From positions 134,278-198,277 of the forward strand of contig JAKLFC010000005.1 of assembly GCA_022711405.1 (NCBI GenBank): DNA of 64,000 nucleotides. The letters are read 5' to 3'. The position numbers and the translations under genes were made by a program. Below are positions 1 through 52,415 of the stretch, piece by piece. Source of the stretch: Bacteroidota bacterium (GTDB lineage: Bacteria; Bacteroidota; Bacteroidia; Bacteroidales; JAGONC01). The notes beneath the pieces were generated by a model. That model made no database searches. It had not been told where the DNA came from and worked only from the letters and a program-made list of their open reading frames with translations. Each line of letters opens with the position of its first letter. The stretch's first letter is position 1.

Positions 1-2463
1 GTCCAGATCTGGCAGGGTGTGAGCAATAACGGATGCACGAATAACTTCGTTTTCACCACCGATGCTTTCGACGGACAGCATACGCAGGGTCAATGGCAGA
101 TTTATTTCACCGACAGCTACGGCGATGGAGGAGGAACAGCATTTGGTCTTAAGATCACCGTGGGTTACACGTATACGATCAGCGGCACATGGATGAACAT
201 TCCCGGTGCAACCGCAGCGACCTATCAACCGCCTGTTCTGACCGATACCACCATGTACAGACTGCATGTCAATGATTTCTGTGGTGAGATCTTCACCGAT
301 GAAGTGACCATCGACGTTACTCCGTTACCAACGGCAAATGCCGGCGAAGACGATGGATTCTGCGAAAATGGCACTTATACGCTGAATGGTACAGCCACCA
401 ACTACGGTTCGGTTGTATGGACAACGGCAGGTGACGGCACCTTTAACGATGCAGCCATCCTAAACGCCACTTATACCCCCGGCGAGGAGGATATTGCAGC
501 GGGTGATGTGGTGCTGACACTGACGGCTCATGCACTCAATGAGTGCCCGGATATTGCCACAGACCAGGTAACCCTCGAAATCGGGTTGTTGCCCACTGTG
601 AATGCCGGCGATGACGGAGCTGCCTGCGAAGACGGATACTACGTGACCCTCGGATGGACCACCAATGCATGGACCACAATGTGGACCACGAGTGGTGATG
701 GCTATTTCGAAGATCCGACATCCACTTTCACCAAGTACTGGCCGGGCGATGGCGATCTGGCAACTGGTCAGGCCATCCTGACGCTGACCGCTACCGCCGT
801 TCCGCCATGTACCACACCGGTGAGCGACAACGTAGTGGTGACATTCATCCAGAAGCCCACTGCCAACGCCGGACCGGATGCAACCATCTGCGGCACGGGC
901 ACGCACACGCTCAATGGCGCAGCTGCCCACTACGCAACGATCACATGGACAACATCCGGGGATGGAACGTTCAGCAATGTCCATATCCTCAACCCGGTGT
1001 ATACACCAGGTGTGAATGACATCACTACGGGCAGCGCAGTTCTGACACTTACTGCCACTGCGATCGCGCCCTGTGAAGGCAATGCCACCGACGCGATGAC
1101 CCTGACCATCATTGGTTTACCACAGGCCCTTGCAGGACCTGACGGAGCCGTATGTGCAGGAAACTCATTCGTGCTCACAGGAGCCACTGCCTCTCACTAC
1201 GGATCCCTCGTCTGGACAACCAGCGGTTCTGGTACCTTTGTCAATCCGAACGTTGTCAATGCAACTTACAACCCGAGCCCGGGTGACATTGCTGACGGTA
1301 CGGTCGTTCTGACACTGACAGCCTACGCCACACCTCCGTGCGGCGGCCTGGCTACCGACGCCATGGTTCTGACGATCACCACTCCGCCAACCGCTTTTGC
1401 AGGCGATGATTTCTCGGTTTGCTCGAACCTGACAGTGGTTCTTGACGGTACCGCAGATAATTATGCCTCTGTGAAATGGACAACTGCTGGAGATGGTACG
1501 TTCAGCAATTCCAACATTCTGGATCCTGTCTATACGCCCGGTACACTTGATTACCTGGCTGGTAGCGTACATCTTACGTTAACTGCCTATGCAGAAGCAC
1601 CCTGCGGTGAGAATGCTGTGGATGAGGTCGTGGTTACGATCGTTCCCAGCGCTTTCGCCAATGCGGGCCCTGATGATAAGATCTGTGCCAATGAACTGTA
1701 TCAGCTCAGCGGCGCGGCAGGCGGTTACTTCTATACGGAATGGACTTCATCGGGCGATGGCAAGTTCAACGACAATACGTTGCTGAACGCGACGTACGAA
1801 CCCGGTGCCAACGACATCCTGCTGGGTTATGCAAACCTGACCCTGACGGCATGGCCGATCGCACCGTGTCTGACCCCTGCCAGCGACCTGATGGTGCTGC
1901 TCATCGATCCTATGCCAGCTATCCCTGGCATTCCGACGGGTTCAGACACCGTTTGCGTGCTCACATCCGATACAACCTGGTTCTCTACCATCGGAGCTGA
2001 AAATGCCCTGTCGTATGTTTGGGATATCTTCCCGGCAGAAGCAGGTACCATATCCGGAGAAGGTACCATAGGGATTGTCGACTGGAGCGGTGAATATTTC
2101 GGACCGGTCTTCATTAAGGTCAAGGGCGTGAATGATTGCGGCGAGGGTGACTTCAGCGAGCCATTCGTAATTCTGGCAGATCCTTGCCCGGGCGTCCCCG
2201 GACAGCCATCCGCCGAGCTTACGGTACTCGTATACCCCAACCCGTCTGACGCCAGGTATAACCTGAAGATCACCAATATCACAGGTAAAATGGATATGTC
2301 GATCATGGATATTACGGGCCAGATCCTGAGACAGGAAGCTGTCAACAGCGTGAGCGGCCTTTACAAGACCGAGATCGACCTGTCTACCTATCCAAAGGGA
2401 GTGTACTTCCTGAGACTGCAGGGGGACAACATTTCCAAAGTGGAACGTCTGATCCTGCGCTAA
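1..2463 (+). CDS. Secreted T9SS cargo protein, 5' end cut by the window edge. It has six tandem ~88-aa Cys-containing repeats, one PKD-like domain and a T9SS C-terminal sorting domain.
   Basis: Frame 1 is open from nt 1; the ORF-track start at 19 is only the first GTG. Six repeats span nt 319-1908 with consensus ANAG-x-D..C..L.G.A.NY..V.WTTSGDGTF..Y.PG..DI..G.V.LTLTA..PC. The PKD-like segment carries the VNDCGEG motif (1909-2190). The tail VYPNPS...GVYFLRL...RLILR is typical of a type-A T9SS CTD. Confidence 0.8.
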   Translation, partial: VQIWQGVSNNGCTNNFVFTTDAFDGQHTQGQWQIYFTDSYGDGGGTAFGLKITVGYTYTISGTWMNIPGATAATYQPPVLTDTTMYRLHVNDFCGEIFTDEVTIDVTPLPTANAGEDDGFCENGTYTLNGTATNYGSVVWTTAGDGTFNDAAILNATYTPGEEDIAAGDVVLTLTAHALNECPDIATDQVTLEIGLLPTVNAGDDGAACEDGYYVTLGWTTNAWTTMWTTSGDGYFEDPTSTFTKYWPGDGDLATGQAILTLTATAVPPCTTPVSDNVVVTFIQKPTANAGPDATICGTGTHTLNGAAAHYATITWTTSGDGTFSNVHILNPVYTPGVNDITTGSAVLTLTATAIAPCEGNATDAMTLTIIGLPQALAGPDGAVCAGNSFVLTGATASHYGSLVWTTSGSGTFVNPNVVNATYNPSPGDIADGTVVLTLTAYATPPCGGLATDAMVLTITTPPTAFAGDDFSVCSNLTVVLDGTADNYASVKWTTAGDGTFSNSNILDPVYTPGTLDYLAGSVHLTLTAYAEAPCGENAVDEVVVTIVPSAFANAGPDDKICANELYQLSGAAGGYFYTEWTSSGDGKFNDNTLLNATYEPGANDILLGYANLTLTAWPIAPCLTPASDLMVLLIDPMPAIPGIPTGSDTVCVLTSDTTWFSTIGAENALSYVWDIFPAEAGTISGEGTIGIVDWSGEYFGPVFIKVKGVNDCGEGDFSEPFVILADPCPGVPGQPSAELTVLVYPNPSDARYNLKITNITGKMDMSIMDITGQILRQEAVNSVSGLYKTEIDLSTYPKGVYFLRLQGDNISKVERLILR

Positions 2464-2518: not shown

Positions 2519-2519
2519 G

Positions 2520-2592
2520 TGATCCAGCCGGGATTCGAACCCGGGACCCACGGCTTAAAAGGCCGTTGCTCTACCTGCTGAGCTACTGAATC
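2520..2592 (-). tRNA. tRNA-Lys (anticodon UUU), 73 nt
   Basis: The reverse complement folds by hand into a cloverleaf. Acceptor GATTCAG/CTGGATC has one G-U pair. D arm is GCTC-AGCAGGTA-GAGC. Anticodon stem is ACGGC/GCCGT with loop CTTTTAA. T arm is CCGGG-TTCGAAT-CCCGG, with discriminator A. No encoded CCA. Confidence 0.9.
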
Positions 2593-2684: not shown

Positions 2685-2771
2685 AAGCTTCAGGCTTCAA
2701 GCTTCAAGAATTAACAATTGAGGAATTGAATTGACAATTAAAGAGTTTAACAATTTAACAATTTGACAATT
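2685..2771. repeat. Simple-sequence spacer of AACAATT/GACAATT-type words
   Basis: The sequence reads ...caagcttcaagaattaacaattgaggaattgaattgacaattaaagagtttaacaatttaacaatttgacaatta. The same word family occurs at 22141-22185, 38101-38135 and 58068-58133. Confidence 0.7.
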
Positions 2772-3378
2772 ATATTTCCCCTTTCCCTTCCCTGATCACA
2801 AAGATCTCTTCCCCGGTACAATCCAGGATGGTGGAGGGCTCATTATCGCCATAACCTCCATCAATCACGATATCGACCAGGTCCTTGAACTTTTCATGGA
2901 TCAGCTCAGGATCGGTCGAGTATTCAAGGATCTCATCCTCATCGTACACCGAGGTCGTCATGATCGGATGACCGAGTTCCTTCACGATCTCGATGGGGAT
3001 CTTGTTATCAGGCACTCGAATACCAACGGTCTTCTTCCTGCTCTGGAAGATCTTGGGCACGTTGCTGTTGGCATTCAGGATGAAGGTATACGGACCGGGG
3101 AGAGACGCTTTCATCAACTTGTAGACAGAATTGTTCAACGGACGCGTATAATCCGCCAGATGACTGAGGTCGTGACAGATGAATGAGAAATTTGCCTTTT
3201 CCTTTTTGATGCCCTTAATTCGTGCGATCCTTTCAATTGCCTTACCCTGGTAAATGTCACAGCCAAGTCCGTAAACAGTATCGGTGGGAAATATGATCAC
3301 ACCGCCATCGTTCAGGCATTCTACTACCGTTTTGATCTGCCGTTCTCCCGGAGTTTCAGGATGGATTCGAAGCAACAT
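2770..3378 (-). CDS. tsaC: L-threonylcarbamoyladenylate synthase (Sua5/YrdC/TsaC family)
   Basis: 202 aa. The N-terminal motif FPTDTVYGLGCD and the overall YrdC-domain length and pattern match the family. Confidence 0.8.
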   Translation of the reverse strand: MLLRIHPETPGERQIKTVVECLNDGGVIIFPTDTVYGLGCDIYQGKAIERIARIKGIKKEKANFSFICHDLSHLADYTRPLNNSVYKLMKASLPGPYTFILNANSNVPKIFQSRKKTVGIRVPDNKIPIEIVKELGHPIMTTSVYDEDEILEYSTDPELIHEKFKDLVDIVIDGGYGDNEPSTILDCTGEEIFVIREGKGEI

Positions 3379-3574: not shown

Positions 3575-3641
3575 TTCATAAATACATCGAACGATAAAGA
3601 TCCCTAAAATAGTGAACAGTATAAATCTAAATACAGGAAAT

Positions 3642-4181
3642 ATGGAAACAAAACCACGCTCCCTATTTATGCATTCTCTGATCTACGGCCTCATTCTGGG
3701 TGCGGCCCTGATCGTTGTCAGCCTGATCTATTATATTCTGGATGTGAATATGTTCAGTATCGGATTCAGCATCCTCTCACTCGTGATTTCCCTTACCATT
3801 GTTATCATTGTCCTTGCCTTAGGGATGAATTCCTACCGGGACCGCAGCCTTTCTGGGAAGATCGATTTTAAACGATGTTTCCTGATCGGATTGATCATTG
3901 GCCTGGTCGGCTTTATCATTTCATCTGCCTACAGTCTGATCTTCATGACCTATATTGAACCTGGCGCCATGGAGGAAGGGATCAACGAGTTCATCGAAAA
4001 ATGGGGTGACAGGATGACGGCGGAGCAATTGGATGATACCATCAGCAAGATGCAGAAAAGAATGACGCCGTCAGCGCAGGTACGAACCAGCCTGATCAGC
4101 GGCGCCATCATTTCCATCCTCCTTTCCCTGATCGTTTCTGCCTTCATCAAGAAAGATAAATCCGCATCGGAGGGTATTTAA
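3642..4181 (+). CDS. DUF4199-like multi-pass membrane protein
   Basis: Four predicted hydrophobic helices. The N-terminus METKPRSLFMHSLIYGLILGAALIV resembles DUF4199 proteins that commonly sit beside a GT2 gene in Bacteroidota. I prefer ATG 3642 over the in-frame GTG at 3612. Confidence 0.55.
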   Translation: METKPRSLFMHSLIYGLILGAALIVVSLIYYILDVNMFSIGFSILSLVISLTIVIIVLALGMNSYRDRSLSGKIDFKRCFLIGLIIGLVGFIISSAYSLIFMTYIEPGAMEEGINEFIEKWGDRMTAEQLDDTISKMQKRMTPSAQVRTSLISGAIISILLSLIVSAFIKKDKSASEGI

Positions 4182-4194
4182 CAGGATTCCGCTT

Positions 4195-5154
4195 ATGGAT
4201 CTTTCCATCATCATACCCCTCTTCAACGAAGAAGAGTCACTGAATGAGCTGGCATCATGGATCGCTCGGGTTGTTGATAAAGAGGGTCTTTCGTACGAAA
4301 TCATTTTTGTGGATGATGGCAGCACGGACCGGTCATGGGCTGCCATTGAGAGACTGTGTTCAGAAAACAAATGCATCAGGGGCGTCCGTTTCCGGCGGAA
4401 TTACGGAAAATCAGCGGCGCTTGGCCATGGCTTTCAGGTGTGCTCGGGAAATGTGGTGATCACGATGGATGCCGATCTGCAGGATTCTCCGGATGAGATC
4501 CCTGCCCTGTACCGGATGATTATCCACGAAGGGTATGACCTGGTGTCGGGCTGGAAGAAGAAACGATACGATCCATTCATCAAGAACAGCACATCCAAAC
4601 TCTATAACTGGACCACCCGGCGCATGTCGGGCCTGAAGCTGCATGATATGAACTGCGGCCTGAAGGCCTATCGCCAGGAAGTGGTAAAAAGCATCGAAGT
4701 ACGGGGTGAGATGCACCGCTATATTCCGGTCATCGCTTACTGGGCCGGATTCCGTAAGATCGGGGAGAAGGTGGTTGTCCACCGCAGGCGGAAATACGGT
4801 GTCACCAAGTTTGGTATGGACCGTTTCATGAAAGGCTACCTGGACCTGCTGTCCATCACCTTTGTGTCGCGGTTTGGCAGGCGCCCCATGCATTTATTCG
4901 GTTCGGCAGGAACGGTCATCTTCATGGTGGGCCTCGTTGCCGCCGTTTACCTGGGCGCACAGAAGATTTATGATCTCAACCATGGCATCAGGGCAAGGCT
5001 GATCGCCGACAGCCCCTATTTCTACATCGCCCTTGTGGCCATGATCATAGGAACCCAGCTCTTCCTCACAGGCTTCCTGGCTGAGATGATCTCCCGGGCA
5101 GTCAGTGACAAGCCCCCTTATCAGGTTGCCGGGGAGACGGGTTTCGGGGAATGA
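4195..5154 (+). CDS. Family 2 glycosyltransferase, polyprenyl-phosphate glycosyltransferase type (Dpm1/GtrB/ArnC-like), with C-terminal TM helices
   Basis: The sequence reads LSIIIPLFNEEESL...VDDGSTD...DADLQD (DxD). Two C-terminal hydrophobic helices give the GtrB-like architecture. Confidence 0.8.
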   Translation: MDLSIIIPLFNEEESLNELASWIARVVDKEGLSYEIIFVDDGSTDRSWAAIERLCSENKCIRGVRFRRNYGKSAALGHGFQVCSGNVVITMDADLQDSPDEIPALYRMIIHEGYDLVSGWKKKRYDPFIKNSTSKLYNWTTRRMSGLKLHDMNCGLKAYRQEVVKSIEVRGEMHRYIPVIAYWAGFRKIGEKVVVHRRRKYGVTKFGMDRFMKGYLDLLSITFVSRFGRRPMHLFGSAGTVIFMVGLVAAVYLGAQKIYDLNHGIRARLIADSPYFYIALVAMIIGTQLFLTGFLAEMISRAVSDKPPYQVAGETGFGE

Positions 5155-5186
5155 CAGGTATTGCTGCCTGTAAAACCAACTAACGG

Positions 5187-6344
5187 ATGACGGGTAAGAA
5201 AAAGATAGTCATTATAGGACCTGCTTATCCGCTTAGAGGTGGCCTGGCCACCTACGATGAACGCCTGGCCAGGGAGTTCACCGACCAGGGCCATGAGGCC
5301 ATTCTTTATACCTTTCGTCTTCAATATCCGGGATTCCTGTTCCCGGGTAAAACACAGTACTCGACCGATCCTGCTCCTGCAGGTCTTGATGTCCGCGTCA
5401 GGATCAATTCCATTCATCCACTGAACTGGATCAGGGTGGGCAGGGAGATCAGCCGCCTGCGACCCGGCATCGTCATCATCCGCTACTGGCTGCCCTTCAT
5501 GGGCCCCAGCCTGGGAACCATTGCTCGCATCATCAAAAGGAACGGCATCTCCAGGATCATCACCATCGCGGATAACATCATCCCCCATGAGCGGCGGTTC
5601 TATGACCGGTGGCTTACATGCTTCTACCTGAAAAGCTCCGACGGATTCCTGTTCATGTCACGTTCGGTCATGAAGGACCTTGACAGGTTCCCGGTCACAG
5701 GTCCCCGCAGGTATTGTCCGCACCCCCTTTACGACACCTATGGTGACATCATCGACAAGGTTACTGCCAGGCAACAGTTAGGTCTGGATCAAAAATGCCT
5801 TTATTTGCTATTTTTTGGCTTTATACGCGATTATAAAGGGCTGGACATACTTCTGATCACTCTGGCGCAAGACCGCCTTAAATCCCTTCCTATTCGCCTG
5901 ATCATCGCCGGCGAGTATTATACCGACAGCAGACCTTACCAGGAGCTGATCGAAAGGCTCAGGATCGGCGACAGGGTGATCGCCTTCAATGATTTCATTC
6001 CCAATTCGGCTGTTTTCCTGTTCTTCTGCGCGGCCGACCTGGTGGTCCAGCCTTACAGGGATGCCACCCAGAGCGGCGTGACCCAGATCGCTTATCATTT
6101 CAACAAGCCGATGATCATCACCAACGTGGGAGGGCTGGCCGAGATGGTGCCCGATGGTAAAGCCGGCTATGTGGTTGAACCTGATCCCATGGAGCTGGCG
6201 GATGCAGTGGCTGATTATTTTGAACAAGACCGGGAAGCTGCATTCGTTTCCTTTATCCGTGAAGAAAAGAAGAAATATTCATGGAATAATATGATTGTTA
6301 ATATTTTTGCCGTTGAAGAAGAAATAGGTAAACTGAAGTACTAG
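5187..6344 (+). CDS. Family 4 (GT-B, Glycos_transf_1) glycosyltransferase
   Basis: 385 aa. The N-terminus reads GPAYPLRGG. The C-terminal half contains FFGFIRDYKGLD...E(x7)E-like region typical of GT4. The stop lies 3 nt before hddA. Confidence 0.7.
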   Translation: MTGKKKIVIIGPAYPLRGGLATYDERLAREFTDQGHEAILYTFRLQYPGFLFPGKTQYSTDPAPAGLDVRVRINSIHPLNWIRVGREISRLRPGIVIIRYWLPFMGPSLGTIARIIKRNGISRIITIADNIIPHERRFYDRWLTCFYLKSSDGFLFMSRSVMKDLDRFPVTGPRRYCPHPLYDTYGDIIDKVTARQQLGLDQKCLYLLFFGFIRDYKGLDILLITLAQDRLKSLPIRLIIAGEYYTDSRPYQELIERLRIGDRVIAFNDFIPNSAVFLFFCAADLVVQPYRDATQSGVTQIAYHFNKPMIITNVGGLAEMVPDGKAGYVVEPDPMELADAVADYFEQDREAAFVSFIREEKKKYSWNNMIVNIFAVEEEIGKLKY

Positions 6345-6347
6345 ATC

Positions 6348-7370
6348 ATGATCATCCGGAGTAAGGCACCCTTAAGGATTGGACTGGCAGGCGGCGGCAC
6401 CGACCTCGAAACGTACTCGGACCGCTATGGCGGCGCCGTTCTCAATGCCACGATCAGCATGTATGCGTACGCCACTATTCAGCCGCGCGAAGACGGGCTC
6501 ATTGTGATCAACGCGGTCGACCGGGGCATCGGGCTACGAACGCCGGTGGCAGTGGATATTCCCATGAAAGAGGGCCTTTACCTGCATGCCGGCGTTTATC
6601 ACAGGATCGTGAAGGAATTCACAGGTAAACCACTTTCGTTCGAACTGACCACCCTTGTCGATGCACCGCCGGGTTCCGGGCTGGGATCTTCCTCCACACT
6701 GGTGGTTGCCATCCTGGGTGCCTTTACCGAGTGGCTGGGGCTGCCCCTGGGAGAATATGACATCGCCCGCCTGGCCTATGAGATCGAGCGGATCGATCTG
6801 AAAATGGCCGGGGGAAAACAGGATCAGTATGCTGCCACGTTCGGGGGAGTGAACTTTATGGAGTTCTATAATGACGACAAAGTGATCGTCAATCCCCTGC
6901 GCATCAATGCATCGTACCTGAACGAGCTGTCGTACAATCTTATCCTCTATCATACCGAGGTATCCCGTTTATCCACCCAGATCATCGAGATGCAGCAAAA
7001 GAGCGTGCTGCAGCAGCATGCATCCTCCATAGAGGCCATGCACGGGATCAAGGAACAGGCGGTGATGATGAAGGAAGCACTGCTCAGGGGTGAGTTTGAA
7101 AAGATAGGTGCCATCCTGGATTTCGGGTGGCAGCACAAGAAGAAAATGGCAGAAGGGATAACGAACTCTTACCTTGATGAGATCTATGCGACCGCCATGC
7201 AGAACGGCGCTACCGGAGGCAAGATCTCGGGTGCAGGGGGCGGGGGATTCATGGTACTTTACTGTCCAAACAACACCCGAGGGGATGTTATCCGGGCGCT
7301 CCACCGCTTTGGCGGACAGGTGAAACGCTATGAATTTACGACGACGGGACTGACGACATGGAGAATTTGA
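6348..7370 (+). CDS. hddA: D-glycero-alpha-D-manno-heptose 7-phosphate kinase (GHMP kinase)
   Basis: The N-terminus RSKAPLRIGLAGGGTD and the GHMP motif PPGSGLGSSS are present. Its context with gmhA, hddC and gmhB supports the call. Confidence 0.8.
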   Translation: MIIRSKAPLRIGLAGGGTDLETYSDRYGGAVLNATISMYAYATIQPREDGLIVINAVDRGIGLRTPVAVDIPMKEGLYLHAGVYHRIVKEFTGKPLSFELTTLVDAPPGSGLGSSSTLVVAILGAFTEWLGLPLGEYDIARLAYEIERIDLKMAGGKQDQYAATFGGVNFMEFYNDDKVIVNPLRINASYLNELSYNLILYHTEVSRLSTQIIEMQQKSVLQQHASSIEAMHGIKEQAVMMKEALLRGEFEKIGAILDFGWQHKKKMAEGITNSYLDEIYATAMQNGATGGKISGAGGGGFMVLYCPNNTRGDVIRALHRFGGQVKRYEFTTTGLTTWRI

Positions 7371-25734: not shown

Positions 25735-27723
25735 ATGTTACAAAGAATCTGTCTTTCGATCGTTGTTTGTCTGGCAGTGATACCATTTCTCACTGCTCAG
25801 ACAAAGTACGGTAGCGGTGGGGAGTACTGCTCCCATGCCAAGTCATCCCGCCACCATGTGCTCCAGCCACGGGGTCCTAATTCTCCAAGTCATCCGTATG
25901 ATGTGCTGGAATATAAGCTGGATCTCGACCTGTATTCCAATTTTGTCAGCCCTTACCCGAAGTCCTTTTCCGGTTCGGCAACGATTCATATCCGGGTGGA
26001 TTCCATCCTGAACAGCATCGACTTCAATGCAGGTAATTATTCTTTACAGATCGATTCGGTCGGTATGTCAGGTTTGTATTTTGAACATGCTAACGATACG
26101 CTCAGGGTGGACCTTGACAATATCTATTATCCGGGTGATTCGCTTTATGTGCAGATTTTTTATCAGCATAGGAATGTGACCGATAATAACTTCAATGTCG
26201 GCGGCGGGATGGTTTTCACCGATAGTGAACCACAGGGGGCGAGAAACTGGTTCCCCTGCTGGGACCAGCCTTCGGATAAAGCCAGGCTGGATCTGACAGC
26301 CAAGGTCCCTGCGACGGCTAAGCTTGGTTCCAACGGCAGGCTGGCCGACTCGACCCATGTTGCAGATACGATATGGTACCATTGGATCTCAAAGGATCCC
26401 GTGGCTACGTACCTGATCGTCATGGCCGGCCGCAACAATTACAACCTGGATATCGTCTACTGGCCCCGCTTATCCAATCCGCAGGACACCCTGCCCATCC
26501 GTTTCTATTCTAACCCGGGAGAAAATCCCACCGCCATCAAGAACATGATCGGATCATTGGCCGATTTTTTCGCTCAGACCTATTGTGATCATCCTTTTGA
26601 AAAGGATGGATTTGCCACGCTGAACAACCTGTTTCAGTGGGGTGGCATGGAAAACCAGACACTGACCTGCCTGTGCCCGAACTGCTGGGATGAGATGCTG
26701 ATCGTCCATGAATTCAGCCATCAGTGGTTTGGCGACATGATCACCTGTGGCACCTGGGCCGACCTGTGGCTCAACGAAGGATTTGCCAATTTCAGTGAAG
26801 CGCTCTGGCTTGAGGAAAAAGAGGGGTATGGAGCCTACAAGGATGAAATTGAGTCCAATGCCTCCAGTTATCTCTATGGCAATCCCGGCTGGCCCATCTA
26901 TAACCCCTCATGGGCCGTCACCCCTCCAGGGGATAACATTCTTTTCAATTATGCCATCACATACGCCAAATCAGCATGTGTCCTGCATCTTTTTCGCTAT
27001 GTTGCCGGCGATTCCCTCTTTTTTGAATGCATCCATCAATATGCAGGCGACAGCGTCCGTTTCAGGTACCAATCGGTAGTTACGCAGGATTTTATTGATA
27101 AAATGAACGAAGTGACGGGTAAGGATTATGCATGGTTCTTCCATCAATGGCTTACGTACCCCGACCATCCTGTGTATGCCAACACCTACAATTTTACAAA
27201 GATCCATGATCAGCTATGGGATGTATGGTTCAGGGCCAGCCAGGTGCAGTCTGACGGGCAGTTCTTTGCCATGCCCCTGGAACTGCAAATTGGATTCAGC
27301 GACGGATCCGATACCCTGGTAAAGGTATTCCATTCAGCTAATAATCAGGAATTTATGTTCGCATTTGCGAAAGAGCCCGTATCACTGGTTTTTGACCCTG
27401 ACAACCAGATCGTACTGAAACAGGGCACCACTGTGGTAGGAACCGGTGAAGGCTCCTTACCGGGCCAGAGGCTTGAATACACGCTTCATCCCAATCCTTT
27501 GGATCAATCGGCACAGGTGATGATTAGAACCACTGAAGAAGCCCCGCTGATGGTAACATTGCTTGACGGAACCGGGATGACCGTTGCAGTTCTGATGAAT
27601 GAGAACAAGCCTGCCGGAGAATATTACCTGATGATCGAAAGGGATGGACTGCCCGGTGGTATCTATTTTCTGAGGATGGAATCGGGGATTGCCAGGGCTA
27701 CCGCAAAGCTGGTCATACGATGA
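25735..27723 (+). CDS. M1-family zinc aminopeptidase with T9SS C-terminal sorting domain
   Basis: It has a signal peptide, HEFSHQWFGD (HExxH), WLNEGFANF (the distal Glu) and the tail HPNPLD...GIYFLRM...KLVIR. Confidence 0.85.
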   Translation: MLQRICLSIVVCLAVIPFLTAQTKYGSGGEYCSHAKSSRHHVLQPRGPNSPSHPYDVLEYKLDLDLYSNFVSPYPKSFSGSATIHIRVDSILNSIDFNAGNYSLQIDSVGMSGLYFEHANDTLRVDLDNIYYPGDSLYVQIFYQHRNVTDNNFNVGGGMVFTDSEPQGARNWFPCWDQPSDKARLDLTAKVPATAKLGSNGRLADSTHVADTIWYHWISKDPVATYLIVMAGRNNYNLDIVYWPRLSNPQDTLPIRFYSNPGENPTAIKNMIGSLADFFAQTYCDHPFEKDGFATLNNLFQWGGMENQTLTCLCPNCWDEMLIVHEFSHQWFGDMITCGTWADLWLNEGFANFSEALWLEEKEGYGAYKDEIESNASSYLYGNPGWPIYNPSWAVTPPGDNILFNYAITYAKSACVLHLFRYVAGDSLFFECIHQYAGDSVRFRYQSVVTQDFIDKMNEVTGKDYAWFFHQWLTYPDHPVYANTYNFTKIHDQLWDVWFRASQVQSDGQFFAMPLELQIGFSDGSDTLVKVFHSANNQEFMFAFAKEPVSLVFDPDNQIVLKQGTTVVGTGEGSLPGQRLEYTLHPNPLDQSAQVMIRTTEEAPLMVTLLDGTGMTVAVLMNENKPAGEYYLMIERDGLPGGIYFLRMESGIARATAKLVIR

Positions 27724-29502: not shown

Positions 29503-32500
29503 TTACCGTACCATGATCTTCCTGACCAGCGTGGTGCTGCTGTTTTCCAGGTAAAGAACATAAGTGCCGGAAGAAACATCTTTCAATCCGATCTCCATCT
29601 CCTGTGTCCCTGTCCAGGTAACGTTCTTTTTCTCATAAACAACACTATTCAGGGCATTGAGGACTTTCAGGTCAAAGATGTCTTCGCGTGTCGTTGTCAT
29701 CCGCAGCGTGAAGGTACCGTTGCTGGGATTCGGAAACAGGGTGATCTGGTCGATCGTGGTCTTTTCTTCCAGTCCGCCGCAGATATCCAGGATTACCTGG
29801 ATGGATTCCGACCACGCGCCTTCGCCACAGTCATTCACTCCCCTGACAGTGACATGGGCAATACCTGTCCATTGTTGATTCCAGGCTATTATGCCTGTGG
29901 TGTCACTGCCGGTGATGACTCCTGCCTCCGGCGGGTTGATGGACCATTCATACAATGAAGCAAATTCAGTTACGGACGTGACATAATATGATGTATCGAC
30001 AAAATTGATGCAGACATAGGTTTCTCCCACGGGTGCCGCTGGTTGCAGGGGCAACGGTTCAAGGGTTACCTGCAGGGGCTCAGAGACGGGACCTTCACCG
30101 CAGTCGTTGACTCCGAGTACCGAAAGTTCCGCCGTTCCCCAGAATTCAGGGGTCCACACCACGGAAAGGGATGTGCCATCGGCAGTGAGGACACCTGCTT
30201 CCTCCGGATTCAGGTTCCACAGGTACGATGACGCACCAGCGATGGAGGTAACAGAGTAGGTTGTTGTTCCGGCATTCTGGCAGAGCATTTCCGGGCCAGC
30301 GGGCGTCGAGGCCGGAGCAGGGAGCGGTGTGACCGTGACAGTCATGGAACCGGAGACGTCCCCGCAGGGATAAAGCCCTGTGAGAACCAGTGTGAGCCCG
30401 AAGGAGCCGTTCGCGATATCACCGGGCCCTGGCGTGTATGCAGCCGACAGGAGGGTGTTATCATCAAAGGTTCCATCGCCTGATGTTGTCCATGTCAGGG
30501 AGGCATAATTCTCCGCAATGGTCCCCTCTGTGGAGAAAATCTCACCGGCACAAATCGTAAAGTTTTCTTCCATTTCAAGGAATGGCGTTCCCTGGATGGA
30601 AAGCTGCATGTCGTCGCTCACCTGGTCGGTTTCATCAAAGGCGGTAAGCGTCAGGGTGACGTCGCCGTTCTGGATATCGCCTGGTCCGGGCGTGTAATCC
30701 GGTTTGAGGATGGCCGGATTGCTGAAGGTGCCATCTCCGGAGGTGGTCCACAAAACCGATGTCTGGTTGTTGGCAGTGCCCGAAAGCGTAAAGGGGCTTC
30801 CCTCGCAGATCGTTGCATTGGGGCCGGCATTTGCCAGGAGCTGCTCCAGCAGCGGGAAGGTAACATAATCTATCCAGACCCGGTCTTCGCCGCCCGTACT
30901 GCCTCCATCCTTGGTGTATCTCCACTCAAACGTATGGATGCCTCCTGTGGTGATAATGAAGGATTCTTCAGACCAGTCCGTTTCCCCCGACCATTCGCCC
31001 AGAACAGTCCCATCCATGAGGAATTGGAGGATATCCGCACCCGGCTGGGTGCTGGTCTTTTTCCAGAAACTCATGGATGTGGCAAAAGGAGAAAATTTGA
31101 CCTCCAGGTCTATCATGAGGGAGGAAGACTGGCTATGTCCAATCTGTCCTGATGCTGCAGAATAGGTGCCGTTTCTTTTTTCCTCTGTATTGATCACCCA
31201 GTTGGCGTTACCGCTGAAGGACCATTCGTTTTTGGAAAAATTTCCTGTTTCAAAATCTTCATCAGGCCGTGCCTCCGTTGAAAATGACCATATTGGGCTT
31301 AGCGCTGATCCGAATGAATTGATTGATTTCACTCTCCAGAAGTACTGTTCCTGAAAGTTGAAATCGGCCTGGGGGATATAGAACGTATCCTGCACAGTGG
31401 CGCCATTGACAATATTTGTCGGCGGATTGTCGGTTCCCAGGTACAGCCTGAAGGAGGAAGAGCGGTTATTGAAATCCTTCCAGTGCAGGGCAGCAAACGG
31501 TTCGACGTTGTTGGCCCCGTTGGATGGTATTGGATCTGAGGCGGGGTTGGGTGTGGTGGGTGTGGTGAAGGGAGACACATAAGTCATGGCGGCTCCGGTA
31601 CGGTTGTCCGTCCAGCATGGAACGACCACACCACCCCTGGCAGAGATGCCCAGGTAATCGCCGAAATAACCGCTGGCTGTTCCGGGGATCGGGGTGGGTG
31701 AGAAGGCTACATCGCTTACCCTGAAGTCATCCCAGGTCTGCCCGCCATCCATTGAGTTGGCAACCCAGGTCTCCACCTGATTGCTTGACACATTGCGGTC
31801 ATCATAAAAAATGACACTCAGTGTCCCGGTCACCGGATCACAGGCGATCCAGGGGAAATAATGTTTCTTACCGGTACTCATGGGATCCTGGTTTACTTTG
31901 ATGGGTGTTGACCATGTAGTGCCGCCATCGGTGGATCTGATCATGTACACATAAATGTCAGGACCCTGGTTGGTGCCGGGGACGCCCACATTGGGCCATA
32001 CGACATAGATGTTTCCTGAGTAGGAGCTGTTGCTGATGTCAACCGCCATGGAGGGAAAGGAGTTCACACGGTGGTTCTTACCGGCAGTTGTATTCCGTAT
32101 CCCCTTGATGTTTTGAATAATCCGCTGTGCGGGCTGGAAGGTGGCACCCCCGTCCAGAGAAGCGGCAAATCCCAGTGCATTTTCATCGCCAGGCCAGTTG
32201 TCATAGATGGCCCATACCGCATAGACCTCACCCGCCGGGCCGGTCTGCAGGTTCACTCCCTGGTTGTGGCTTCCGGCATTGATTGCTTCGCTGATCATGA
32301 TCTTTTGCTGCCAGCTCAGTCCCCCATCGGTGGACCTTGCCACTTCGATCTCATTGTCGCTGGAACCGCCAAAGGATGTCCAACCGGAATACAGATTGCC
32401 CTCGTACGGGCTGCTGGTACTGTTATCAATCGTCAGATGGTTCTTGTCGAGCAGGCTGCTGAAACCGGAGGGTTTGGGAGCAATGGTCACCGAAATCCAC

Positions 32501-33069
32501 GTCTGTCCCTGGTCGGAAGAGTAGGAGCAGCTCTGCCCGCTTCCACTGTTAATGAATCCGTTATAGAACCATCCGTTGGTGCCAATGGCTACGGACGGGT
32601 CCCCTGAATTGGTTCCGCCTGTGCCATAGATCGTTCCTTCCCAGGATTCACCCGTGTCGAACGAGTAAAGTCCGTCGGCGCCATACAGCGTGCCTCCGGA
32701 TGAGGAGAGTGAATTATTGGAGTTCAGGATCGTTTCCACTTCTCCCGGATCAATGAACACAGAATTTTCGCTCTGCGTCGAGCCTGCATCCGTCACAGCT
32801 ACATCAGGCGAGTCCTCAATGGTCACGCTTCTGGACTTAATGGATGAACCCTTATACTGTGCCGGTTCAGAGATCACATTGGGATTCAGCCTGGTGAGCC
32901 CAAGACGGGCCATCCGCAGCCAGTACCCCTGGTTGTCAATGTAGGTCTGAACCTGGTAGCCCTCTGGCACGTTCTCGTCATCAGCGGATGAACCGGCATT
33001 TTGTGCGGAAAGGGTGAAAGGGATGATGAAAAACAAACAGAAGGAACCAATAAGGAATGATGTACGCAT
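29503..33069 (-). CDS. Large secreted T9SS cargo protein. It has a BNR/sialidase-like beta-propeller, FN3-like and jelly-roll-like domains, two copies of the 88-aa ANAG/WTTSGDGTF repeat, two PKD-like domains and a CTD.
   Basis: Six S-x-D-x-G-x-(T/S)-(W/F) motifs are present: SFDTGESW, SSDQGQTW, STDGGLSW, SLDGGATF, STDGGTTW, SMDGGQTW. The repeats span nt ~30335-30845, the VNDCGEG PKD-like units ~29790-30335, and the tail LFPNPSNGTF...GTYVLYL...KIMVR closes the protein. Confidence 0.8.
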   Translation of the reverse strand: MRTSFLIGSFCLFFIIPFTLSAQNAGSSADDENVPEGYQVQTYIDNQGYWLRMARLGLTRLNPNVISEPAQYKGSSIKSRSVTIEDSPDVAVTDAGSTQSENSVFIDPGEVETILNSNNSLSSSGGTLYGADGLYSFDTGESWEGTIYGTGGTNSGDPSVAIGTNGWFYNGFINSGSGQSCSYSSDQGQTWISVTIAPKPSGFSSLLDKNHLTIDNSTSSPYEGNLYSGWTSFGGSSDNEIEVARSTDGGLSWQQKIMISEAINAGSHNQGVNLQTGPAGEVYAVWAIYDNWPGDENALGFAASLDGGATFQPAQRIIQNIKGIRNTTAGKNHRVNSFPSMAVDISNSSYSGNIYVVWPNVGVPGTNQGPDIYVYMIRSTDGGTTWSTPIKVNQDPMSTGKKHYFPWIACDPVTGTLSVIFYDDRNVSSNQVETWVANSMDGGQTWDDFRVSDVAFSPTPIPGTASGYFGDYLGISARGGVVVPCWTDNRTGAAMTYVSPFTTPTTPNPASDPIPSNGANNVEPFAALHWKDFNNRSSSFRLYLGTDNPPTNIVNGATVQDTFYIPQADFNFQEQYFWRVKSINSFGSALSPIWSFSTEARPDEDFETGNFSKNEWSFSGNANWVINTEEKRNGTYSAASGQIGHSQSSSLMIDLEVKFSPFATSMSFWKKTSTQPGADILQFLMDGTVLGEWSGETDWSEESFIITTGGIHTFEWRYTKDGGSTGGEDRVWIDYVTFPLLEQLLANAGPNATICEGSPFTLSGTANNQTSVLWTTSGDGTFSNPAILKPDYTPGPGDIQNGDVTLTLTAFDETDQVSDDMQLSIQGTPFLEMEENFTICAGEIFSTEGTIAENYASLTWTTSGDGTFDDNTLLSAAYTPGPGDIANGSFGLTLVLTGLYPCGDVSGSMTVTVTPLPAPASTPAGPEMLCQNAGTTTYSVTSIAGASSYLWNLNPEEAGVLTADGTSLSVVWTPEFWGTAELSVLGVNDCGEGPVSEPLQVTLEPLPLQPAAPVGETYVCINFVDTSYYVTSVTEFASLYEWSINPPEAGVITGSDTTGIIAWNQQWTGIAHVTVRGVNDCGEGAWSESIQVILDICGGLEEKTTIDQITLFPNPSNGTFTLRMTTTREDIFDLKVLNALNSVVYEKKNVTWTGTQEMEIGLKDVSSGTYVLYLENSSTTLVRKIMVR

Positions 33070-49637: not shown

Positions 49638-52415
49638 TTATTTCACGCACCGCACGCTGAATCCGTTTGTCTTATCGCTTGCAAAACGGCTGACACGTGC
49701 ATCATCGTAGTTCAGGTACCTGCTCCAGGCGGTTTGAGCATCATTCTGCGTGGATGACCAGAAGGTACCCAGTTCACCCATATCAAAGAAGCCCCCGTCA
49801 TAGATGTTCCGGTATCCGCCGGGAAGTCCCGTAAACCCGCTGCTGTTCGTGGCCCCCGTGTTGGGTTCTTCCCAGTGGTCCAGCCCGGCCTCCTTCATAT
49901 GGCCCCCCGCATCCAGGCCACACTTGCCCACTTTGTCCCATTCCGGATGACCTGCCGGATACTGGCTGTCGATGGTGCCTGTGAGCGTTTTCAGCTCACT
50001 GTCGGTGGGGATGTGCCAGTTGGGCGGGCAGATGCCACGGGTACCCTGCTGGGTGACATACTGCATGGCTTCAGGCCATTCGTACAGGGCTCCATAGGTC
50101 TCACACTGCACAGGATCGTTGTTGTAACAGTATTTCTCGATGAGATCGTTGTCCGTCTGCTGGTACCCCTCTTCATCGCTGTTGATCCTGGCTCCGATAT
50201 TGAGGTTCTCCGACATCCAGCACTGAGTTCCGACCTGCACGGTGGAATAGACCTGGCCGTCGCGGAAATCGGTGAGAGGATCCCCGCAGTTGAATACGAA
50301 ACTGATCATCACTGCATCCGTTGAGCTGCTGCAATCTGTGGTGATGGTCCATGTAAGGTGATAGGTGCTGTCGACAAGGCCCTGGAAGGTGCTTGCCGGA
50401 TTCGTGGTGTCCTGGATCGTTCCCCCGGTGCCGTTCACGATATGCCACACTCCGGTACCGTTGATGGGGGTGTTGGCAGCCAGCGTGGTCATGTTTCCCG
50501 GAACGTTAATCTGATCCGGACCGGCGCTGGCAGGAGTGGGCTGTGGTACACAGCCGCGTATGCATCGGATCGAATATCCCGAAGGAGGGTTGGCATAGCT
50601 GTAGCGTAAGATGCTTTTATGCTCAAAGTCGAGCAAACGCAGCACGATATAATTCGTGTCCACCCGCGAGGAAGTCCAGAAAAAGGCCGAACTGTCCTTT
50701 TCGATGAAAGAAGCCGTGGATTTATCCCTTCGTCCGCCGGGCAGGCCGGTAAAACCGTATATGTTGGTTGCGCCTGTATTGGGTGCAGCCCACATCACCG
50801 TGGTGGTATCCTTCAGGTTCCCCCCGGCATCCAGTCCCCGCCACCAGTCGTTATCCCAGACCGGATCGCCGGCAGCATACTGGCTGTCGGTAAATCCTTC
50901 GAGCACTTTCCATTCGAAGTCGGACGGGATGTGCCATCCCAGTGGGCAAATTCCCTGGCTGCTGGGAAGGGTGGCATACTGCATGGCTTCGCCCCACTGG
51001 TAAAGACCTCCGAAAAGGGTACAATTGGCGGTATCATTGTCATAACAAAACTTTTCGATGGTTCCATTGTTCGATTGTTCAATGGTTCCTGCGATCATGG
51101 CGCCCACGTTCAGGTTTTCCTTGAGCCAGCATTGATTGCCGATCTGGACCGTGTTATAGGTACGGCCTTCGAAAACGACTTCCTCGATGTCCTCACAGGG
51201 CAAGCCGAAGAGTTCCGCAAAGCTGATTTGGACAGTGTCGGCTGAGTTGCCGCATACGGTGCTGATGATCCAGGCCAGGGCATACTCGTTGCCCTGGATG
51301 CCCTGAAAGCCGCTAAGCGGATTCAGTGTGTCGGCGATGAATCCTCCGGTACCGGTAATGATACGCCAGACACCTGTGCCGCAATCGGGCGTATTTCCTG
51401 TCAGGAACGTATAGGTGTTCTGTACATCTATCTGGTCGGAGCCTGCGCTGGCCTGGGAAGGCTGCGGCACGCAGTTCTTCAGGCACCTTACCGAGAAGCC
51501 GTTTCCCTTCGGGGAGCTGCTTCGCGTCGCATCGTCGGTGGTATAGTACATATAACGGTCCCAGCCACTGGCAGCGTCGGCAGGGGAGGAGGACCAGAAA
51601 ATGCCATATTGCCCCAGGCCCGTAAACGAACCATCGGTGCTGATGCGGTATCCTCCTGCAAGGGCAGTGAATCCGCTGGAGTTCGTGGCTCCGGTGTTAG
51701 GAGCCTGCCAGTGGGTGAGGCCAGCTTCTTTCATCCTGCCTCCGGCCTCTCCCGCGCCACCGAGGAAGGTTGTCAGTACCGTGTAATCCATGTCGGTGGG
51801 CAGGTGCCATCCGGTGGGGCAGATGCCCTGCGCGCCGGCGGTTCCCTGGTATTTCATGGCTTCAGGCCACTGGTAAAGGCCACCGTAGCTGTTGCAATTA
51901 GCCAGAATATTACCATAGCAGTACTTCTCGATGGTTCCATTGTTCGATTGTTCAATGGTTCCTGCAATCATGTTACCCACGTTCAGGTTCTCCCTGAACC
52001 AGCACTGATCCCCGATCAGCACCGTGCTGTATGTTTTTCCGCCGTAGGAAACTGCAGGCGTGCCCGGGCATTGCATTCCCGGTGTTTGCAGGATGAGACT
52101 GGTGACAGAAATGACATCAAGGATGTTGATGATCCCATCTGCGTTCATATCGGTTGCTTCCAGGTCGAACGGATCGGGGCTGCCACCCATGATATAGCTT
52201 ACCATGGCAATGACATCCAGCACATTGACCTGGCCGTCTTCGTTGGCATCTCCAAAAATGGTGTATTCACATTCAGGAGGGGAGGGTGAGGGTTCAAAGA
52301 GGCTGGCCGCCTCTGAGCCCGGCACATCCAGGCACGACAGTGATCCATATATCCGGGTGGTGTATAGGGATAACACTACTGTCATAAATGCAATGAAAAG
52401 TAGCGAATTTTTCAT
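49638..52415 (-). CDS. Secreted protein with an N-terminal type-I-like dockerin and three Fibrobacter succinogenes major paralogous (FISUMP, TIGR02145-like) domains separated by Ig-like linkers
   Basis: It has a signal peptide. The dockerin duplicated segments are GDANEDGQVNVLDVIAMVSYIMGG and DMNADGIINILDVISVTSLIL (nt 52089-52256). Three units carry Y.TV.IG.QCW..ENLN...CY.N....C..YG.LY.W.EA....CP.GWH.P(T/S)D.E...L. Confidence 0.75.
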   Translation of the reverse strand: MKNSLLFIAFMTVVLSLYTTRIYGSLSCLDVPGSEAASLFEPSPSPPECEYTIFGDANEDGQVNVLDVIAMVSYIMGGSPDPFDLEATDMNADGIINILDVISVTSLILQTPGMQCPGTPAVSYGGKTYSTVLIGDQCWFRENLNVGNMIAGTIEQSNNGTIEKYCYGNILANCNSYGGLYQWPEAMKYQGTAGAQGICPTGWHLPTDMDYTVLTTFLGGAGEAGGRMKEAGLTHWQAPNTGATNSSGFTALAGGYRISTDGSFTGLGQYGIFWSSSPADAASGWDRYMYYTTDDATRSSSPKGNGFSVRCLKNCVPQPSQASAGSDQIDVQNTYTFLTGNTPDCGTGVWRIITGTGGFIADTLNPLSGFQGIQGNEYALAWIISTVCGNSADTVQISFAELFGLPCEDIEEVVFEGRTYNTVQIGNQCWLKENLNVGAMIAGTIEQSNNGTIEKFCYDNDTANCTLFGGLYQWGEAMQYATLPSSQGICPLGWHIPSDFEWKVLEGFTDSQYAAGDPVWDNDWWRGLDAGGNLKDTTTVMWAAPNTGATNIYGFTGLPGGRRDKSTASFIEKDSSAFFWTSSRVDTNYIVLRLLDFEHKSILRYSYANPPSGYSIRCIRGCVPQPTPASAGPDQINVPGNMTTLAANTPINGTGVWHIVNGTGGTIQDTTNPASTFQGLVDSTYHLTWTITTDCSSSTDAVMISFVFNCGDPLTDFRDGQVYSTVQVGTQCWMSENLNIGARINSDEEGYQQTDNDLIEKYCYNNDPVQCETYGALYEWPEAMQYVTQQGTRGICPPNWHIPTDSELKTLTGTIDSQYPAGHPEWDKVGKCGLDAGGHMKEAGLDHWEEPNTGATNSSGFTGLPGGYRNIYDGGFFDMGELGTFWSSTQNDAQTAWSRYLNYDDARVSRFASDKTNGFSVRCVK

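Follow-up and report, generated by a model that had tools for sequence, protein, structure and literature searches.

A widespread, uncatalogued PKD/Ig-like repeat in type IX secretion cargo of Bacteroidota, with cysteines that most likely link neighbouring domains

We analysed a window of 64,000 nucleotides (nt) from a Bacteroidota bacterium (GenBank assembly GCA_022711405.1, contig JAKLFC010000005.1, positions 134,278 to 198,277 of the forward strand), in which two cargo proteins of the type IX secretion system (T9SS) share a tandem repeat with a WTTSGDGTF core. The repeat is a divergent immunoglobulin (Ig)-like domain related to PKD domains. As a stalk domain it is very widespread among the surface proteins of Bacteroidota but uncatalogued, in that no Pfam or NCBIfam model reaches it at threshold, and its nearest solved relative is the repeat of a T9SS fibre. 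Judging from sequence covariation, its two conserved cysteines, at columns 14 and 75 of the repeat (C14 and C75), most likely link neighbouring repeats rather than brace a single domain. Taken as a whole, we read the repeat as a PKD/Ig-like subfamily of T9SS cargo that forms a rod stapled by inter-domain disulfides and serves as a spacer, a reading to which we give a probability of about 0.7.

The repeat, its family and its relatives

Frame +1 is open from nt 1 of the window to a stop codon at 2461–2463 and encodes the first cargo protein (protein 1), whose N-terminus is cut off by the window edge. Six tandem copies fill amino acids (aa) 108–636 (nt 322–1908, plus strand), and a scan for W-[TS]-[TS]-[SA]-G-[DS]-G found the core at aa 140, 228, 316, 405, 493 and 581, a period of 88. 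Protein 2, from a 1188-aa open reading frame (ORF) at 29503–33069 on the minus strand, has two copies (aa 742–915, nt 30846–30325). Its order of domains is a putative signal peptide (MRTSFLIGSFCLFFIIPFTLSAQ, typical as judged by eye), a BNR_2 propeller, the two repeats, two PKD_6 domains and the sorting domain. A first-pass annotation of the window had placed six copies at nt 319–1908, which is one codon early at the start and immaterial, and two more on the minus strand in the BNR-propeller protein. We confirmed both arrays, found its consensus pattern in agreement with our alignment of the eight copies, and recognised the PKD-like units with VNDCGEG and the sorting domain that it had seen behind each array as PKD_6 and Por_Secre_tail, present in both proteins.

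The eight copies align with single-residue gaps only, except that the first copy of protein 2 lacks three residues, and fourteen columns are invariant (C14, G23, W33, T34, G37, G39, F41, Y51, P53, D57, G61 and L65-T66-L67). Pairwise identities are 35–55% for protein and 52–60% for DNA, and Tandem Repeats Finder detected no 264-nt period over the repeats. According to this low DNA identity and the lack of a period, the copies are old repeats held by selection on the protein, and not the product of a recent amplification. Chance or a compositional artefact could be ruled out, as a family hidden Markov model (HMM) built without the window sequences scores the eight copies at 86–114 bits, compared with 7.2 bits for the best of 400 shuffles. 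On a smaller scale, repeat 2 of protein 1 contains a micro-tandem, GATGGACCACCAAT (12–15 nt, 2.7 copies, 653–689, plus strand), that encodes WTTNAWTTMWTT, a local WTT triplication (micro-duplication) just upstream of the SGDG turn.

The first-pass annotation described the repeat as shared by two proteins, which understates its reach. Searching 1.84 billion cluster representatives with an eight-copy profile, we obtained 6,830 proteins at E ≤ 1e-3, of which 1,880 at E ≤ 1e-30. The best-scoring members are giants of 1,200–7,200 aa (the longest has 7,183 aa), in which as many as 67 stretches match. Source labels of a few members name Lentimicrobiaceae, Bacteroidales, Flavobacteriales and Cytophagaceae, and the members are described as ‘hypothetical’ or ‘gliding motility-associated C-terminal domain-containing protein’, or, for some from JGI, as ‘PKD repeat protein’. 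The association with T9SS, whose survey the first-pass annotation had suggested, is borne out: a sorting domain, of type A or of the CHU_C-like type B, forms the C-terminus of about 119 of the 152 proteins with 1,000 aa or more, and the remaining 33 stop within a repeat, that is, they are C-terminally truncated fragments. The classes were assigned with our own HMMs, type A being seeded partly from Por_Secre_tail tails and CHU_C-like type B being recognised by eye. On one metagenome contig from ENA (3589–6709), a repeat gene with a CHU_C type-B sorting domain is immediately followed by a PorP_SprF gene, the usual pair of type-B cargo and anchor, with the cargo gene broken into two ORFs.

For the copy statistics, 3,498 full-length copies were taken from 176 proteins. 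Their modal length is 88 aa, and conservation reaches 100% for W33, 98% for Y51 and G39, 97% for C14, 96% for C75, G8 and G37, and 92% for A7. The aspartates D10, D57 and D81 are conserved at 73–86%, and the variable loop positions are 15–20, 26–32, 42–49 and 70–74.

Regarding existing models, scans of protein 1 with Pfam-A and NCBIfam release 20 gave nothing on the repeat region even at E ≤ 1, PKD (PF00801) and PKD_4 (PF18911) included, and the precomputed matches of a newer Pfam to protein 2 are only BNR_2, PKD_6 and Por_Secre_tail, with the repeats unlabelled. When 85 diverse repeats were scanned singly against Pfam, all matches were sub-threshold, PKD_4 being the commonest (7 of 85, best E 1e-3, below 27 bits). 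PKD_4 does exceed its threshold on the family member P0156, with 123.9 bits over the whole protein and one stretch covering positions 3–85 of the 85 in the model. The precomputed PF27223 label on homolog P0011 is a ‘faint’ YdeJ match and gives no assignment. A full-text literature search with the motif strings and PF27223 found no description of the repeat.

The β-sandwich in T9SS cargo that the first-pass annotation had expected agrees with structure prediction and with the sorting domains. AlphaFold2 models reach a predicted local distance difference test score of 97.7 for one repeat and of 96.7 for two repeats (predicted template modelling score 0.79), and show an Ig-like sandwich of seven to eight strands (predicted at 4–6, 11–14, 24–26, 28–35, 50–52, 62–71 and 78–88) with a short helix at 55–60. 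The top Foldseek match in the PDB is the base region of GhpA (9fly_A), with a template modelling score (TM) of 0.76, 2.3 Å, 89 ungapped columns and 22% identity, and GhpA is also the top match of the two-repeat model (E 1e-8). The other matches are generic Ig, cadherin and PKD domains at TM of about 0.5–0.67, the human PKD domain 2yrl being at 0.64. GhpA is the grappling-hook protein of Aureispira sp. CCB-QB1 (PDB 9fly, 9flp and related entries; 10.1101/2024.01.29.577165).

A profile of the 85 diverse repeats matched the GhpA sequence 9flp_A at E 2.5e-5 in 44 stretches (the best with 24 bits and i-E 3.4e-4), and one displayed alignment places a GhpA cysteine on column 14. A narrower profile of 8 sequences did not find GhpA among the PDB sequences, which indicates a distant relationship. 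Two further matches were not used: that of the 8-sequence profile to intimin, which is at chance level, and that of the phmmer consensus search to 9ncf, an I-set-type ‘Immunoglobulin-like domain protein’, which is biased and unrelated. Using hhalign, we aligned 600 repeats with 236 true PKD domains located in the C-terminal regions of these giants and obtained 86.8% probability (E 4.3e-6) over 62 columns, in a register that puts C14, W33, G-D-G and C75 of the repeat on the C, W, G-D-G and C of PKD; an earlier alignment with 14 PKD domains of one protein was weak (11%, E 0.0027) and had the same register. It is the structure and profile matches to GhpA, together with this PKD alignment, that make the repeat a divergent PKD-like Ig domain. 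The first-pass statement that it belongs to no named family stands as far as Pfam and NCBIfam models at threshold go, and the window copies gave no confident match to a characterised family, but the repeat is not without relatives, namely PKD by hhalign, GhpA, and PKD_4 on P0156.

GhpA resembles the repeat proteins in being the best structural match, in its tandem arrays within a giant T9SS substrate, in the column-14 cysteine and in the weak yet significant profile match. The differences are also clear. At about 22% identity it would miss the E-value cut-off of a large-library search, and its repeats, shorter by a few residues, do not have the WTTSGDGTF core. Moreover, GhpA is a heptameric fibre of 5,898 aa with a hook module and PorP/PorE-type anchor genes, whereas the window proteins are ‘1.2 kb-class’ cargo with 2–6 repeats and type-A sorting domains. 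In neither window protein do the repeat regions contain the O-glycosylation motif of Bacteroidota, D-(S/T)-(A/I/L/V/M/T), so a GhpA-like glycosylated stem is unsupported here.

PKD domains (PF18911 PKD_4 and PF00801, clan E-set) share with the repeat a length of about 85–90 aa, the fold, the W-D-F-G-D-G motif in the place of its W-x-x-x-G-D-G, and both cysteines in register. What sets the repeat apart is its signature, ANAGxD-x3-C ... WTTSGxGTF ... Y-x-P-x3-D-x3-G-x-V-x-LTLTA, and the short helix at 55–60; besides, proteins that have both domain types keep repeats and PKD domains in separate blocks. PKD_6 (PF19408, ‘PKD-like domain’) and Ig_7 (PF19081, ‘CHU_C-associated Ig-like domain’) occur next to the repeat within its proteins, have the same two-cysteine layout (A' strand and F–G loop) and appear to continue the inter-domain pairing described below, but they are separate sequence families and neither model matches the repeat at threshold. 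SprB-type gliding adhesins are likewise giant, repetitive type-B cargo of the T9SS, and SprB repeats (PF13573) precede the array on its N-terminal side in some family members (P0164); the SprB repeat, however, is a 37-aa unit of other sequence, and PF13573 has no match on either window protein.

Covariation and pairing of the cysteines

For the covariation test, a cysteine within ±2 residues of its column was counted as present. Within repeats, none of the 109 copies that miss one cysteine misses both. In 2,901 adjacent pairs, C14 of one repeat (i) and C75 of the next (i+1) are lost together 13 times, with 10 pairs lacking C75(i+1) only and one lacking C14(i) only (odds ratio (OR) 3740, p 1e-28), and the double losses come from 9 different proteins. 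The reverse combination, C75(i) with C14(i+1), shows no association, and control offsets of -2, -1, 0, +2 and +3 gave 0–1 double losses. The ‘Cys-bracketed’, disulfide-stabilised single domain of the first-pass annotation does not fit these counts, as the covariation is that of C14(i) with C75(i+1) and is never found within a repeat. The two covarying cysteines are separated by a median of 151 aa (5th–95th percentile 148–156), which compares with 152 aa for Cys2988–Cys3140, an example of the inter-domain disulfides reported in GhpA (10.1101/2024.01.29.577165). Given the co-loss at offset +1 and a spacing like that of GhpA, we read the array as a putative disulfide-stapled, rigid stalk.

At the array ends, C75 is missing in 5.2% of first-of-array repeats and in 0.75% of internal ones (OR 7.2), and C14 in 6.9% of last-of-array repeats and in 1.7% of internal ones (OR 4.2). 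The predicted partner of a last-of-array C14 is either a cysteine of the Ig-like domain that follows, 140–165 aa downstream, or a cap cysteine immediately behind the repeat. Such a partner was found for 154 of the 163 last repeats that have C14, compared with 3 of the 12 that lack it (p 3e-8).

Bookkeeping in the window proteins can be done residue by residue. The stalk of protein 2 contains cysteines 754, 839, 901, 929, 989, 1019, 1080 and 1096, and the inter-domain rule pairs all eight, as 754–901, 839–989 and 929–1080 (147–151 aa) and, with the cap cysteine, 1019–1096; under an intradomain model, 754 at one end of the stalk and 1096 at the other would have no partner. For protein 1 the rule gives 121–270, 209–358, 297–447, 385–535, 474–623, 562–713 and 652–729, Cys713 being the FG-loop cysteine of PKD_6, 151 aa downstream of C14 of repeat 6. 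This leaves over Cys182, whose predicted partner in an ortholog of protein 1 is the A'-strand cysteine of the upstream Ig_7-like domain, just outside the window.

We also looked at arrays of true PKD domains in the same giants (e.g. P0027, aa 5115–6600). Their A'-strand cysteine is missing in 31 of 249 domains and in none of the 202 that lie directly before another PKD domain; the covariation test itself had too few losses here to inform at offset +1. In P0027, C14 is absent from the last WTTSGDG-type repeat, and the PKD domain that comes next has no F–G cysteine. The same inter-domain pairing rule seems to hold across domain types. Some repeats of P0032, P0102 and other members carry an extra pair of cysteines at columns 66 and 82 (‘LCLTA ... 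DC’), in the adjoining F and G strands. The number of extra cysteines per repeat leans to even values (none in 3061 repeats, one in 197, two in 184, three in 12 and four in 41), which hints at an added intradomain disulfide.

A stapled stalk and the alternatives to it

T9SS substrates cross the inner membrane by Sec, can pass SprA/Sov folded and are recognised by their C-terminal domain (10.1101/2024.01.29.577165). Starting from the observed repeat, its architecture, its family size and the cysteine covariation, together with the predicted fold and the relatives, we infer disulfides between the covarying cysteines, and a rigid rod that serves for spacing and not for binding. The 88-residue Ig-like β-sandwich would be a distinct, strongly conserved subfamily of PKD-like domains that builds the extracellular parts of T9SS cargo, placed head to tail in 2 and 6 copies in the window and in up to about 67 elsewhere. 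These domains would fold and oxidise in the periplasm or on exit, and the cysteine at the end of the A' strand (column 14) of one domain would bond with the F–G-loop cysteine (column 75) of the next, about 151 residues on, each junction staple tying the C-terminal pole of one sandwich to the F–G loop of its neighbour. The rule would run on into the flanking Ig_7-like and PKD_6 domains and end at the cap cysteine before the sorting-domain linker.

Such a ladder of staples would yield a covalently braced, stiff rod, as in the GhpA stem seen by cryo-electron microscopy (cryo-EM), where inter-domain bonds have been proposed to contribute to a straight, rigid stem (10.1101/2024.01.29.577165). The rod may act as a spacer that keeps N-terminal working modules off the cell surface, where the sorting domain targets the protein. 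In protein 2 it would consist of two repeats and two PKD_6 domains between the BNR/sialidase-like propeller and the sorting domain, and in protein 1 of six repeats and one PKD_6 between an Ig_7/P-domain region and the sorting domain. Of the two roles offered by the first-pass annotation, surface stalk or binding module, the stalk is the best functional reading and binding is rated lower.

Several points weigh against the stapled spacer. The staple disulfide is argued from covariation, cysteine bookkeeping and analogy. Four of the 13 co-losses are in one protein (P0032) and may have a single origin. The likeness of cysteines 2988 and 3140 of GhpA to columns 14 and 75 consists of the spacing and of a single column-14 cysteine. 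Rigidity and the spacer role are suggested by GhpA, which is a distant relative and heptameric. With 2–6 repeats, the stalk would be short, roughly 8–25 nm at an assumed 4 nm or so per domain, and the variable loops may have a binding role.

One alternative is that the repeats are self-contained sandwiches, each with its own C14–C75 disulfide, and that the array is a flexible string of independent beads. Intradomain disulfides are common in Ig-like domains, conservation is about 97% for the two cysteines, whose distance is 61 aa in every repeat, and in protein 1 alone the bookkeeping does not separate this model from the inter-domain one. Nevertheless, it accounts neither for the absence of repeats missing both cysteines nor for a co-loss specific to offset +1; it leaves the two orphans of protein 2 four domains apart, and gives no role to the cap cysteine that follows the last PKD_6 in both window proteins and in the ortholog. 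Topological reasoning on the predicted strands also speaks against it, as the two cysteines should sit close to opposite poles of the sandwich, C14 to the C-terminal and C75 to the N-terminal one. We consider independent beads quite unlikely.

The repeats could instead be ligand-binding or adhesive modules for a glycan, a protein or a cell, multiplied to raise avidity. The adhesin domains of SraP, intimin and cadherins are among the Foldseek matches, the giants with up to 67 copies have few other recognised domains, and the loops listed above are variable. The conserved residues, however, are glycines, buried aromatics and alternating hydrophobics, as expected of core and turns, with no conserved surface motif except the cysteines, and the window repeats are placed as a spacer would be, with a catalytic-type module on one side and the anchor on the other. 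In GhpA, moreover, the homologous repeats form the stem and it is the distal hook region that contacts the prey (10.1101/2024.01.29.577165). A binding role as the main function appears unlikely. Cadherin-like rods stiffened by calcium, with D10, D57 and D81 binding Ca2+ at the junctions, are very improbable: tandem cadherins dominate the two-repeat Foldseek list after GhpA and the three aspartates are well conserved, but the cadherin matches are at 8–16% identity and TM of about 0.5–0.6, weak Cadherin_5 matches occur in 2 of 85 repeats, cadherin Ca2+ motifs were not seen (no search aimed at them was made), and the cysteine covariation already provides a mechanism to stiffen the junctions.

Ig/PKD-like tandem repeats in T9SS surface proteins are a known kind of element, inter-domain disulfides are documented in GhpA, and as an Ig/PKD-like spacer of secreted proteins the array does not amount to a novel type of system. 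The novelty lies in the subfamily, which is very large and sharply conserved and has no curated model, and in sequence evidence for a specific pairing rule that reaches across neighbouring families. This unannotated domain makes up most of thousands of giant surface proteins of Bacteroidota now called ‘hypothetical’, all of which could be annotated immediately with a curated model. The covariation offers a concrete structural rule, namely which cysteine would bond with which, that would explain stiff T9SS stalks and fibres and extend a feature of which the cryo-EM structure of GhpA has been the sole example until now. The rule further predicts the start and the end of a stalk, by orphan-free bookkeeping and the cap cysteine, which is useful for the design of constructs and for the architecture of gliding adhesins and surface enzymes.

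More tentatively, the cysteine ladder might be a general building rule of T9SS surface proteins across the repeat, PKD_4-type PKD, PKD_6 and Ig_7 domains, always capped, giving stapled rods of up to about 0.25 µm (67 domains, each about 4 nm long). Uncultured anaerobic Bacteroidales, Lentimicrobiaceae among them, commonly carry the WTTSGDGTF family, which could then build rigid, possibly multimeric GhpA-like appendages not yet seen. This wider proposal is speculative, and we hold it to be doubtful.

Features of the window and neighbouring genes

Table 1. Positions of the domains and cysteines of the two cargo proteins in the window; for repeats, the cysteines are given in the order C14, C75.
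Feature	Position (nt)	Strand	Remarks
ORF of T9SS cargo protein 1	1..2463	+	N-terminus beyond window; stop 2461–2463
Protein 1, Ig_7-like domain, C-terminal half, aa 61–107, FG-type Cys94	181..321	+	comparison with the ortholog at locus L003
Protein 1, repeat 1, aa 108–195, Cys121 and Cys182	322..585	+	
Protein 1, repeat 2, aa 196–283, Cys209 and Cys270	586..849	+	contains WTTNAWTTMWTT
Protein 1, repeat 3, aa 284–372, Cys297 and Cys358	850..1116	+	copy modelled with AlphaFold2
Protein 1, repeat 4, aa 373–460, Cys385 and Cys447	1117..1380	+	
Protein 1, repeat 5, aa 461–548, Cys474 and Cys535	1381..1644	+	
Protein 1, repeat 6, aa 549–636, Cys562 and Cys623	1645..1908	+	
Protein 1, PKD_6, aa 639–719, VNDCGEG	1915..2157	+	PF19408 E 3.5e-5, 24.5 bits vs cut-off 25
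Protein 1, cap cysteine Cys729, just past last Ig-like domain	2185..2187	+	predicted partner Cys652 (PKD_6 A' strand), by pairing rule
Protein 1, T9SS type-A C-terminal sorting domain, aa 744–818	2230..2454	+	PF18962 E 4.7e-12; TIGR04183 E 7.6e-12
ORF of T9SS cargo protein 2, 1188 aa	29503..33069	-	
Protein 2, repeat 1, aa 742–827, Cys754, without C75	30589..30846	-	first in array, after Cys-free domain
Protein 2, repeat 2, aa 828–915, Cys839 and Cys901	30325..30588	-	
Protein 2, first PKD_6, aa 918–1000, Cys929 and Cys989	30070..30318	-	PF19408 E 1.9e-16, two stretches
Protein 2, second PKD_6, about aa 1006–1092, Cys1019 and Cys1080	29794..30054	-	approximate limits
Protein 2, cap cysteine Cys1096, after last PKD_6	29782..29784	-	
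Protein 2, T9SS type-A sorting domain, aa 1111–1187	29509..29739	-	PF18962 E 2.8e-9

The ortholog of protein 1 lies at a syntenic locus (L003) of a Lentimicrobiaceae metagenome-assembled genome and is 82% identical over a two-repeat query (repeats 3–4); the search for related loci, made with this single query, recovered this one genome locus. Judging from the ortholog, a P-domain-like insert of about 140 aa appears to interrupt the Ig_7-like domain before repeat 1. Both Pfam matches of the ortholog are below threshold, Ig_7 with 24.5 bits (cut-off 27.3) and P_proprotein with 17.6 bits (cut-off 21, E 0.0042). Comparing L003 144–1400 with 1–321 (plus strand) of our window, we found that the window keeps the end of the insert (aa 1–60) and the C-terminal half of the host domain.

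Directly downstream of the first cargo gene there is a tRNA-Lys(TTT) (2519–2592, minus strand), followed by a gene of the Sua5/YciO/YrdC family (2770–3378, minus strand), and the order from the cargo gene to the Sua5/YrdC-like gene is also kept at L003. An M1-family aminopeptidase (25735–27723, plus strand) has a T9SS-type sorting domain at its C-terminus (Por_Secre_tail, 26.7 bits, cut-off 27) and would be a third T9SS cargo of the window, without the repeat. At 49638–52415 (minus strand) we found a 925-aa protein with a type I dockerin, three Fib_succ_major domains and an Lcl_C domain, a mix that is unusual for a Bacteroidota-like genome. Finally, a DDE_Tnp_1 transposase ORF at 55970–57208 (minus strand) probably belongs to an insertion sequence.

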